A stretch of DNA of 64,000 nt from Gammaproteobacteria bacterium (GTDB taxonomy: Bacteria > Pseudomonadota > Gammaproteobacteria > Ga0077536). Position numbers and translations under genes: made by a program. The notes under the pieces are model-generated. The model ran no database searches, had not been told where the DNA came from, and was given only the letters and a program-made list of their open reading frames with translations. This document shows positions 58,275 through 60,373 of the stretch, piece after piece (position 1 is the first letter of the stretch; each line of letters starts with the position of its first letter). The stretch covers positions 2,144,001-2,208,000 of the forward strand of contig CAXXLL010000003.1 of NCBI GenBank assembly GCA_963662545.2, written 5' to 3'.

Positions 58275-58744
58275 TCCACTCGCTATGCACGACTGAATCT
58301 TACGAGTTTGGACGAAAGGCAAGATTTGCGAGTATAAGAAGAACAAAGCGTGTTTTTGTCTGTTTATCGAGTATGCGAGTTTAAATCGGGTGGTAGATTG
58401 GTTCGCACTGACTGCGCTTGGGGGTCGTATAAGCGAAAGAAGGCGAGCAAGTCCTGTCTTTAATGAGTGGAAACGGTCCCCCCGCGTCGTCGAATTAGCC
58501 TTGAGACCCAGCGCGTCCGCGACCGTCGCTAGCGAGGCCTGGCATCCATGTGTTGAGGGGATTTTGGGGCTCATTCGTTGAGCCCGGGGAGCATCAATTG
58601 CGGCGGCGCCCGGGCGGCATGTGCGTTGGCGCTTGGGGGGCTGGTGGTTTGACGATCGAGATGATCCAGGATGCGCTGGATGACGGTGGGGTCTTCGATG
58701 CAGGCGATGATCTTCACCGCACCGCCACACACCTCGCAGGTTTC

Positions 58745-58819
58745 ATCGGGCACATCTCTGTGCCCGCCCGCTTCGCGGCAGTCTGCGCCTGTGCAAATCG
58801 GCTTTCCTGCCGATTTGTC
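58745..58819 (-). repeat. 75-bp four-hairpin micro-element (in-frame insertion)
   Basis: Removing it restores ...IDI-ETCEVCGG. Confidence 0.85.
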
Positions 58820-58830
58820 AATGTCGATGT

Positions 58831-58877
58831 GGCCTACAGGGATGTAGGTCAGGGGCGTGAGCAGGACGCGGAAGCTT
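58831..58877 (+). repeat. 47-bp REP-like palindromic insertion
   Basis: ggcctacagggatgtaggtc...gcaggacgcggaagc; removing it restores KRVF-NIDI. Confidence 0.75.
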
Positions 58878-59025
58878 TGAACACGCGTTTCAAGCGGCGT
58901 GCCCACGCCAAGGTCGCGCGCTGTTGGGTGGCTGTTTTATCGGTCTGCAGATCGGGTGATTTTCGACCACGCCGGGCGGGTGTGACGGTGGCGCGGTGGG
59001 CGCTGTTCGGAGCGAACATGCCGTG

Positions 59026-59097
59026 ACAAATTTATCCGGAATAAATTTGGACGACCGAAGGTCGCCCGAAGGGTGAGGAACAGGGATGTTCCTCATC
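59026..59097 (+). repeat. 72-bp four-hairpin micro-element
   Basis: Removing it restores NLIRF-HGMFAPN. Confidence 0.85.
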
Positions 59098-59154
59098 AAA
59101 GCGAATGAGATTGACGCGGGGTTTGGGAATGAGCGCTGCGAGACGGGCGATGAA

Positions 59155-59225
59155 GTACTCCGGGCATCCTGCCCTGCGCCCTTCGGGCCAGCCTACGGCT
59201 GTTCAAAATCGCTCCCGGCGATTTT
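59155..59225 (-). repeat. 71-bp four-hairpin micro-element
   Basis: Removing it restores VPLD-FIARLAAL; AC is repeated at the junctions. Confidence 0.85.
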
Positions 59226-59821
59226 GTCTAACGGCACGAAGAACATATGCGTCGTGCCATCGCGGTAAGGGGTTTTGAGTTGGTACCGGACGAAGCCGTT
59301 TGCAGTCAGCGAGAGGCGTTGTTCAGAAATGGCGGGGCGGTGATGTAACGGGCAAGGCGTTCGAGCTTTCTGCGCTTCTCCGGTTCGACGGCGACGCCGG
59401 CGTGCAGGGAGAAACCCGCGGCCTTGGCCAGGTGGTCGCTGGTGCGCGTGCTATCGTCGCGAGCCGGTAAGGTCTGCAGCGTGAAGGCTTTGTGACCCTC
59501 GCGGGGCCCGACAGCGATACGGATCATGCCCCGTTCCTGCAAACGTCGGCACAATTCGTAGGGCTCTTGCCAGTTCTGATTTTGAATATGCGAGACGATC
59601 AAGGCGCCATCGAGCGCGACGGCGTTGGCGATTATTTCCCGGTGACCCAGGGTCCAGTTCAACGGCAAGGACTCGGTCGGGCCAAAGCGAGTATGAGCAC
59701 CAAACATGCGATCGTACTTCTTGGCGAGTTTCTGTCGTCATCGTGACCGTGAACGGCGGGAATCTGTTCTATACTCGTTGCGTGTCGGGTTGATGTCTTT
59801 CGAGTACGCAGGAGGAAACGC

Positions 59822-60373
59822 ATGAACATGCCGAAAGTCAGCGTGGCGGATATGGAGCGTTTAGTCGCGCGCTTCAGCGACATGAAGGGCGCGAAGCTCG
59901 CCTATATGGATCAGAGGATCCCGGGCCACGAGCGCGAAATCGTCAATGTCATCGGTCTCGAAACCATGGAAGCCAGCATCATCGAAAACAAACGCGATCC
60001 GTCGACGGCGCCCATGATTCCCGCGCCTGCGCACGGCTTCACGGTTCAGGTCGCGCATGCCGAACACGGCGGCGGCGCGGCCTTGCACAGCCATGAAACC
60101 GAAGAAGTGTTCATGCCCATGGTTGGGCCCTGGTCGATCTTCTGGATGGAGGGTAACGAAGAAAGAGAAGTCATACTCGAGCCTTTCGACGTGATTTCGG
60201 TGCCGACGGTCATCTACCGCGGCTTTCGTTACGTTGGTGAAGGGCGGGGATCATTGCTCGCACTGATCGGCGGGCCGGACGCCGGGATAATCGGGTGGCA
60301 TCCCGACGTTATCGAGAAGGCGCGCGCGACAGGGCTCGCCGTGGACGAGAACGGGGTATTGATCGAAGTGTAG
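59822..60373 (+). CDS. Cupin domain protein
   Basis: RBS aggagg; LHSHETEEVF, EPFDVISVP...RGF. Confidence 0.88.
   Translation: MNMPKVSVADMERLVARFSDMKGAKLAYMDQRIPGHEREIVNVIGLETMEASIIENKRDPSTAPMIPAPAHGFTVQVAHAEHGGGAALHSHETEEVFMPMVGPWSIFWMEGNEEREVILEPFDVISVPTVIYRGFRYVGEGRGSLLALIGGPDAGIIGWHPDVIEKARATGLAVDENGVLIEV

Follow-up and report, generated by a model that had tools for sequence, protein, structure and literature searches.

Four-hairpin micro-elements in a decayed ISCR transposase gene: a probably mobile family related to the RrA/RrB/RrF core of Escherichia coli

Introduction

Why a single transposase gene should have collected four small palindromic inserts within 480 bp is the question raised by positions 58,745 to 59,225 of a 64,000-nucleotide (nt) stretch of contig CAXXLL010000003.1 from a gammaproteobacterium (assembly GCA_963662545.2); the whole stretch is referred to here as the window. 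A first-pass annotation, made from the letters of the window alone, read three of the inserts as a family of single-stranded DNA (ssDNA) micro-elements that favors rolling-circle transposons of the IS91/ISCR type. The best explanation reached here is that the three are copies of a module related to the E. coli small RNA (sRNA) RrB and to the tRNA-linked repeats (TLRs); the module has probably been amplified in this genome as a non-autonomous mobile element, inserting precisely at G^AA and repeatedly entering ISCR genes. Throughout, G000 denotes the genome under study, G001, G004 and so on are related genomes, and L-numbers are fetched sequence records.

The interrupted transposase gene and its four-hairpin inserts

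The host gene occupies 58571-59530 on the minus strand of the window and is the decayed C-terminal remnant of an ISCR/IS91-type (Y2 HUH) transposase gene, a reading with which the list of open reading frames agrees. The remnant was aligned by tblastn to the single intact ISCR-type transposase of G000 (500 aa, C3:2499002-2500501), which it matches over aa 271-491 in four frame-shifted pieces at 45-65% identity; the Y2 HUH homology, including the C-terminal CxxC region, rests on this alignment, and the N-terminal half, with the HUH-motif part of the transposase, is missing. The intact copy itself matches Y2_Tnp (PF04986) with 129.6 bits and is 74% identical to a widespread ISCR2-type gene. ISCR-like sequence forms 43 clusters in G000, together 21.5 kb or 0.38% of the genome, of which only the one copy is intact. 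The host gene of the window is long dead, and its four inserts are relics for which a present function is not likely.

Alignment to the intact copy confirms that four inserts interrupt the transposase reading; the coordinates first assigned to them are equivalent placements of the same junctions. Three of these, termed E1, E2 and E3, consist of four hairpins each and are recognized by R1, a covariance model built from 27 G000 copies and used alongside nhmmer. E1 (59155-59227, minus strand, sense to the gene; 71 nt; R1 86.6 bits, E 1.3e-21) is found between codons D367 and F368 (P-L-D / F-I-A-R-L), with a 2-nt AC ambiguity in its placement; it shifts the frame, and paralogs in which its site is empty exist. 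E2 (59026-59097, plus strand, antisense to the gene; 72 nt; R1 87.1 bits, E 9.5e-22) is found between codons F386 and H387 (N-L-I-R-F / H-G) and is in frame, but brings a TAA; in G000 the same site carries an element in 11 copies and is empty in 8 paralogs. E3 (58744-58819, minus strand, sense; 75 nt; R1 67.9 bits) is placed inside I-D-I / E-T-C (aa 442-443) with a 3-nt TGA ambiguity, and is both in frame and stop-free; the paralog at C2:1640750 is empty with an identical target sequence, and Nitrococcus mobilis has an element at the same site.

When folded as ssDNA, each of E1-E3 forms the four named hairpins (H1 to H4) with z values of -5.1 to -6.2, none of 200 shuffles being as good, and their complements fold just as well. 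In H1 the loop sequences are CGGGA, CCGGA and AGGAAA; in H4 they are GGA and GGGA for E1 and E2, and GAGA, one change from GGGA, for E3. H2 of E2 has five base pairs (CGACC/GGTCG) rather than the four that had been claimed. Within the window R1 finds no copies beyond E1-E3 save one weak composite match (58794-58851, E 0.026), in agreement with the earlier statement that no complete copy is present elsewhere in the 64 kb.

Fold, copy number and distribution of the family

The covarying four-hairpin fold proposed from three sequences is upheld by folding and by covariation in larger alignments. Among the 27 G000 copies, 14 of 19 RNAalifold pairs have compensatory changes; in 62 copies (59 distinct) drawn from 19 genomes or records other than G000, pairing covers 93.2% of cells versus 67.0% in shuffles, 20 of 23 pairs vary on both sides, and the covariation score is 0.617 versus 0.155 for shuffled alignments and at most 0.103 with slid partners, although this alignment was fitted to R1 and is therefore somewhat biased toward the structure. 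The module is 71-76 nt long and starts with ACAAA; the loop of H1 is C(N)GGA, that of H4 is (N)GGA within a closing CA...TG, and the two hairpins between them, H2 and H3, are short, rich in G+C and capped by loops of three bases. It is the loops that are conserved and the stems that vary, the loop columns being invariant or nearly so in the 27 copies.

G000 contains at least 61 copies at E<1e-4; R1 scored 150 of the 2360 candidates from the first look, which makes all copy numbers minimum values. R1 matches are present in 26 of 41 related genomes (G000 counted), including eight other families of the same class, and the Klebsiella pneumoniae chromosome has 4 copies. BLAST of the region against plasmid records had pointed to Klebsiella, where the best R1 matches adjoin the 5S rRNA gene on its downstream side. 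E1-E3 are best explained as copies of a 71-76-nt module family spread across the Gammaproteobacteria. No family for the element came from Rfam scans that covered the region, 14 other loci, arrays of GGA-loop hairpins and the K-12 rrnB end; sub-threshold matches to CC0196 (E 0.005), AaHKsRNA22 and RsmW were the only ones.

Several other repeats of G000 and its relatives resemble parts of the module. A miniature transposable element with inverted repeats (MITE) of ~250 bp, seen at C3:821262-821330 and ~16 further loci (e.g. C2:2528574-2528709 and C3:876763-876896), has ~22-bp inverted ends starting CTAGCAGCC and, at its center, a three-hairpin relative of the element in one, two or three tandem units of 66 nt. 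Tandem arrays at C3:857706-858197 (4 x 158 nt) and C3:1299319-1299495 (3 x ~77 nt) have several GGA-loop hairpins per unit and could be CsrB-like decoy RNA; their match in Rfam is a sub-threshold one to RsmW (E 0.72). A ~110-nt three-hairpin repeat, its copies near-identical and its middle hairpin reading CCGGCACAGGGATGTGCCGG, is found at ~14 loci (e.g. C2:392175-392194, C2:1034212-1034231 and C3:1556533-1556552). In the rlmN-ndk spacer of K. pneumoniae (L177, 1500-1585) a three-hairpin variant of the element directly adjoins another repeat, which we take to be ERIC/IRU-like.

Junctions and evidence for mobility

It is fairly likely that the module behaves in G000 as a non-autonomous mobile DNA element. 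Its insertion at G^AA is precise and leaves no duplication: at all junctions that can be reconstructed (ISCR sites, a MITE apex and tRNA T-loops) there is no target duplication and an ambiguity of 0-4 nt. The target reads G^AA(A/T/C) on the strand of the element, while on the other strand the insertion often falls just past a TTT Phe codon. The idea of a structure-defined, non-autonomous micro-element family thereby gains from the 61 copies of G000, from sites that are exactly filled or empty, from nesting and from the missing duplication.

Filled and empty sites outside ISCR genes are seen in a second MITE, ~165 nt long with clear inverted ends and a long hairpin. Two of its copies, at C3:2237380-2237623 in the sucB-lpd spacer and at C3:2354084-2354321, carry a 72-nt four-hairpin element at the apex with exact junctions, while four (C2:1993621-1993787, C2:1028229-1028391, C2:1988645-1988807 and C3:2743705-2743868) are empty. 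The whole insertion of MITE plus element in the sucB-lpd spacer is missing from both congeners. At C3:2213700 an element is nested within another copy of the element. Fragments of tRNA 3' ends provide a further target, as the T-loop is interrupted at GGTTCG^AATCC...CCA at five loci in G000; T-loop insertion is also seen in at least 9 of the 62 copies from relatives, including all six fetched from G029, with others in G034 and G012.

Probable recurrent insertion in ISCR genes

The elements of the window belong to a wider pattern: on the balance of evidence, a small set of ISCR codons has taken repeated, independent insertions, which break the gene. Of the 61 G000 copies, 25 are located in ISCR clusters and one more was added by gapped tblastn; the resulting 26 of 61 in 0.38% of the genome amounts to an excess of about 110-fold by length. 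Seven sites are used, with antisense insertions at aa 190/191 (within H-F-H of the HUH motif), 234, 363, 369 and 386, and sense insertions at aa 367 and 443. The antisense sites 190/191, 234, 363 and 386 directly follow a Phe codon, TTT where the junction base is visible.

Across 32 non-duplicate pairs of copies filled at site 386, that of E2, identity is 74.0% for the codon-aligned 96-nt flanks and 94.7% for the 72-nt elements; E2 of the window and the copy at C3:2213495 show 0 differences in 72 positions of the element and 15 in 96 positions of the flanks. In a tree of the flanks the 10 filled and 6 empty copies are interspersed, 4 changes are required, and the labels are not more clustered than when shuffled. 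The site is occupied by three different subfamilies. Codon 386 is TTC or TAC in all 8 empty copies, and the bases after the element are AAA in 7, CAA in 3 and AAT in 1 of the 11 filled ones.

Other genomes show the same positions. ISCR copies account for 11 of the 62 elements of relatives, at the same positions (L026 and L058 being possibly one record, and L138 being assigned from its flanks only). An ISCR gene from a metagenome-assembled genome (L026/L058), 84-91% identical to the intact copy, is undisrupted to the contig end at aa 434 apart from one antisense element at aa 369, and the ISCR gene of Nitrococcus mobilis (L054) has a single stop codon and, at aa 443, a single in-frame element of 75 nt. 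Among ~68 ISCR2-type loci from other hosts, none has an element inside the gene, a weak match in L120 lying upstream. A real preference for ISCR is likely, and the preference for rolling-circle elements put forward earlier is retained in part: the share of copies in ISCR remnants and the reuse of the same codons in other genomes speak for it, whereas other types of target are common. Likewise, the comparison of densities within G000 does yield a large excess in ISCR, but one confounded because the remnants are old and neutral.

The ISCR copy at C3:2046513-2048452, which is nearly full-length, has taken up no fewer than 9 small inserts. In addition to the four-hairpin family, ISCR remnants carry two-hairpin families of 47 nt and 51 nt with the same CA-NGGA-TG loops, and the 47-nt family is found within MITE copies too. 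At C3:2482499-2482573, and in G001 (L024, 1587-1661), the left flank of one element is that of site 386 and its right flank that of site 369; both congeners share this element, which looks like the product of recombination between two neighboring copies, with 17 ISCR codons deleted.

Relation to E. coli RrA/RrB/RrF and tRNA-linked repeats

The family has a characterized relative: as judged from sequence and structure, it is homologous to the core of E. coli RrA/RrB/RrF. E. coli K-12 has exactly 3 R1 matches (77.1 bits, E 3.3e-17, model positions 1-76), situated in the distal spacers of rrnA, rrnB and rrnD; the three loci, in no set order of operons, are NC_000913.3 4171837-4171913, 4040717-4040793 and 3423266-3423342. 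The K-12 copy sits within a fragment of the 5S 3' end, which it interrupts, and a canonical copy is part of the T1-T2 terminator cassette of rrnB; a similar stretch is present, unannotated, in 3987 of 5426 complete E. coli genomes. According to the available portions of Stenum et al. (2021, PMC8144298), the sRNA genes rrA/rrB/rrF are the sequence between the rrn terminators T1 and T2 and are members of the TLRs, known since 1978, with no function stated and no origin discussed there. The same portions report that RrB pulls down CsrA and binds Hfq too, that replacing three GGA motifs of RrB, two of them in hairpin loops, abolishes the CsrA gel shift, that RrB is conserved in at least 31 species, all Enterobacteriales, and that the rrnB T1-T2 terminator is widely used in cloning vectors (PMC8144298). 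Since RrB binds CsrA via GGA loops, the conserved GGA loops of the family have a known RNA-level reading, one that was absent from the first-pass annotation.

The likeness extends to the same four-hairpin core, which is ~70% identical to E1, the same ACAAA start, and GGA loops in the first and last hairpins, as in E1 and E2 (H4 of E3 has GAGA). The hallmark of TLRs is also found elsewhere in G000, where two tandem units behind tRNA-Pro are followed by 19 nt identical to the tRNA 3' end. The window copies differ in location: TLRs lie behind a 5S or tRNA gene with an 18-19-nt repeat of its 3' end, and the E. coli copies between dual terminators behind 5S, whereas E1-E3 lie in a transposase pseudogene in both orientations and do not show the TLR arrangement. 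They differ further in being part of a multi-copy, mobile family in G000 versus 3 fixed copies in K-12. In the portions of PMC8144298 available, RrB is treated as an sRNA gene conserved in Enterobacteriales, and no dispersed or mobile repeat is described in them; a literature search, with most subscription journals outside its reach, found no account of the family as a dispersed or mobile repeat. The csrA gene is present in G000, and CsrA binding by sense transcripts of the element would be a second property, compatible with mobility, to judge by the E. coli homolog. At C3:2532414-2532964 csrA, a degenerate element copy and tRNA-Ser follow each other on one strand.

Comparison with known mobile systems

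A structural parallel exists with the single-stranded transposons of IS200/IS605 type and their gene-less PATE-like derivatives. These share with the element the lack of terminal inverted repeats and of target duplication, a hairpin near each end with similar loops, and insertion in fixed orientation beside a short specific sequence; the targets of the element, too, are often in hairpin loops (T-loop, MITE apex). The element differs in having two extra internal hairpins, and a search of G000 yielded no cognate TnpA/TnpB, that is, no Y1 transposase or TnpB parent with the same ends.

Repetitive extragenic palindromic (REP) sequences, REPINs with their REP-associated tyrosine transposases (RAYTs), and bacterial interspersed mosaic elements are likewise small structured extragenic repeats that occur in tandem and nested arrays, and REPs within genes are known (PMC3733652). 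The element is without their GTAG or CGTC head and has four different hairpins, not one palindrome or inverted pair; at 71-76 nt with an ACAAA start, it does not conform to a 20-40-nt GTAG/CGTC palindrome flanking a RAYT. A small RAYT-like gene of G000 (162 aa) has its own palindrome just upstream, as two inverted GTAG-bearing copies. Rickettsia palindromic elements, compared here by description, are small palindromic inserts in coding sequence, some with lengths divisible by three, as are E2 (72 nt) and E3 (75 nt); the difference is that the host gene here is dead, E2 adds a stop, and E1 and E4 (the fourth insert, described below) shift the frame. The element is not a classical MITE either, as its ends, ACAAA... 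and ...CATC/GATG/GAGT, are not inverted repeats and its target is not duplicated; by contrast, the two MITEs that host it have clear terminal inverted repeats.

E4 and other features of the host gene

The fourth insert of the window, E4 (58831-58877, plus strand), is 47 nt long and comes from another family, one of two hairpins; its plus strand carries one CA-GGGA-TG hairpin. It is situated between codons 439/440 and 441 (R-V-F-(N/K) / I-D-I) and shifts the frame; its fold is weak (z -2.8). A 57-nt stretch with E4 recurs in 7 further ISCR remnants, every time at the E4 site. The suggestion that E4 is the end of an abundant 1.39-kb insertion sequence (IS) was ruled out, there being no similarity. 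Stretches of 44-52 nt that are 88-95% identical to E4 occur in a Pseudoalteromonas sp. replicon (L178, 1501-1552) and in four further records; at the one locus inspected, the stretch lies 22 nt past the end of an ISAs1-family transposase gene. E4 may be derived from an IS end or may be a horizontally spread micro-element.

A 1-nt frameshift at approximately 59335-59345 (minus strand), where the frame switches between the high-scoring segment pairs of aa 271-331 and aa 314-370, is ordinary decay and contains no element. Contigs from RNA libraries (100% identity) read through E1, E3 and E4 without skipping, with DNA carry-over possible, and nothing suggests removal of the elements at the RNA level. 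In contigs from public sequencing runs the joints found are those of paralogs, not of alleles. More than half of the sampled words of window positions 58300-60000 are present in public sponge metagenome and seawater metagenome runs, and parts are present in three metatranscriptome runs. At C3:2694300-2710500 three ISCR remnants are spaced ~7.6 kb apart with near-identical flanks, which suggests tandem triplication of a ~7.6-kb segment.

Proposed mechanism and competing explanations

In the mechanism proposed for the mobile module, the element inserts precisely, in a defined orientation and without duplication, at ...G^AA(A/T/C), and ISCR transposase genes offer at least 7 such positions, the HUH-motif codons included. 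Transposition would pass through ssDNA, with a trans-acting enzyme of HUH/IS200-IS605 type or similar that may recognize the two GGA-loop end hairpins, and the same loops in forward-sense transcripts of the copies could bind CsrA, as the E. coli homolog does. The ssDNA/HUH route, like the notions that the element parasitizes the transposon or serves host defense, is an inference.

A number of observations weigh against this explanation. The five RAYT/IS200-like (Y1-type) genes of G000 are not flanked by the element or by R1-like hairpins, and the RAYT hypothesis was rejected; no RAYT/HUH gene of the kind anticipated earlier is associated with the copies in G000, TnpB has no match in that genome, and no TnpB-carrying parent IS was found there. 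Across 40 relatives a Y1_Tnp match tracks the element weakly (19 of 25 with the element, 6 of 15 without), and six element-bearing genomes have no Y1 match. Origin from IS91/ISCR ends was rejected, as neither the oriIS end of ISCR2 nor the ends of a 2.6-kb IS91-like element of G000 resemble the element. One G of the target seems to have been lost or substituted both at site 386 and in the E. coli 5S fragment. One consensus-like site, C3:2759906 (GAG^AAAGCG), is empty. That the target is always a hairpin loop was also rejected: six ISCR junctions of the intact copy, folded as ssDNA, fall at unpaired percentiles of 15-91 on either strand and show no shared pattern. A search by eye alone for guide-like complementarity of the element to its target gave nothing convincing. 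Built from 96 columns, the flank tree lacks any strongly supported branch. The excess in ISCR is subject to confounding, as the remnants are old, neutral and multi-copy, several copies stem from duplication, and there is no same-age pseudogene control; other two-hairpin families with CA-NGGA-TG loops accumulate too, 54 of 137 such hairpins lying in ISCR remnants.

One competing view is that insertion occurs at any G^AA and is kept where harmless, ISCR remnants being old, dead, multi-copy DNA and rolling-circle preference playing no part. Nearly all copies do lie in dispensable DNA (ISCR remnants, MITE centers, pseudo-tRNA fragments, operon spacers), the target is a short sequence (G000 has 12,417 occurrences of TGAAA), the same remnants are riddled with other small two-hairpin families to the point of the heavily invaded full-length copy noted above, and young IS copies (the 1.39-kb IS, ~18 copies at 98-99% identity) are element-free. 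It is nevertheless considered somewhat unlikely in light of the roughly 110-fold excess, of elements much younger than their host ISCR copies at site 386, of well-preserved ISCR genes hit at the same codons in other genomes, and of an ISCR share of at least 3 of 5 copies in G004 and at least 3 of 7 in G011. The opposite view, that of the first-pass annotation, is that the elements parasitize rolling-circle transposons, or are used by the host to disable them, by way of a single-stranded ISCR intermediate. It draws on the occurrence of the element in 15 of 15 relatives with Y2_Tnp versus 10 of 25 without, on the reuse of sites that include the HUH codons aa 190/191, and on a homing-like pattern of near-identical elements in diverged ISCR copies; yet relatives do not count as independent samples, elements are carried along within ISCR copies, ten genomes carry the element without any Y2 transposase, and both orientations are found in the gene (antisense at five positions, sense at two) where a single displaced strand predicts otherwise. 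Insertion is just as typical of T-loops, 5S fragments and MITE apices, and the family is not confined to rolling-circle elements, with copies in tRNA T-loops, TLRs, the centers of two MITE families and operon spacers, and downstream of 5S in E. coli and Klebsiella; this view is held to be decidedly unlikely.

A role at the RNA level would account for the modules differently: they would be kept because their transcripts act, as CsrA/Hfq decoys or as RrB-like terminator or processing signals, the conserved GGA loops would mirror that role and not the demands of a transposase, and the ISCR copies would be by-products. The CsrA-binding GGA loops of the E. coli homolog, conserved, according to the portions of PMC8144298 available, in at least 31 enterobacterial species, agree with this, as do csrA in G000, tRNA-linked copies that are sense and downstream of the tRNA, and CA-(N)GGA-TG hairpins at ~4x the level of control motifs in G000 (137 of 1735, 7.9%, versus 1.8-2.8%). 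Orientation relative to neighboring genes is mixed in operon spacers, however, copies in ISCR genes are mostly antisense, for those in dead genes no transcript on which to act is evident, as DNA one strand folds as well as the other, and the exact insertions are left unexplained; on these grounds an RNA function as the cause of the pattern is thought unlikely. Finally, each ISCR site may have been hit once in an ancestor, the element being inherited and kept alike by gene conversion or structural selection with no recent mobility. Subfamilies number roughly one per site, G004 and G000 have E2-site elements that are ~88% alike with compensatory differences, and the recombinant element with identical flanks is common to G000 and G001; but both ISCR sub-lineages contain a mixture of filled and empty copies, the element of the window is identical to that at C3:2213495 while their flanks differ, immediate flanks differ between copies and so leave no co-conversion tracts, the subfamily typical of site 234 is also found at site 386, and recent insertions are seen elsewhere (MITE apices, the sucB-lpd spacer). 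Such ancient residence is regarded as very unlikely, and the amplified, mobile RrB/TLR-related module is preferred.

Significance

The finding joins three matters that have been treated apart: an E. coli sRNA in the rrnB T1-T2 terminator, the TLRs, and small mobile hairpin elements. Should the module be mobile, insertions into spare copies of stable-RNA genes may have left TLR-like arrangements and dual rrn terminators as their scars, and a mobile carrier of CsrA sites could rewire post-transcriptional control. The enzyme that mobilizes it could be sought by phylogenetic profiling. Site-specific breakage of ISCR genes is relevant since ISCR elements capture genes, although the organism here is environmental.

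In its widest form, the RrB/TLR module would be a class-wide mobile micro-element with CsrA-binding hairpins, moved by an ssDNA enzyme and homing into ISCR codons (including the HUH motif), T-loops and the 3' ends of stable RNAs; as a whole this is considered improbable. Were it true, it would explain the origin of TLRs and of the dual rrn terminators, and the element would be a natural disabler of the gene-capturing ISCR elements.

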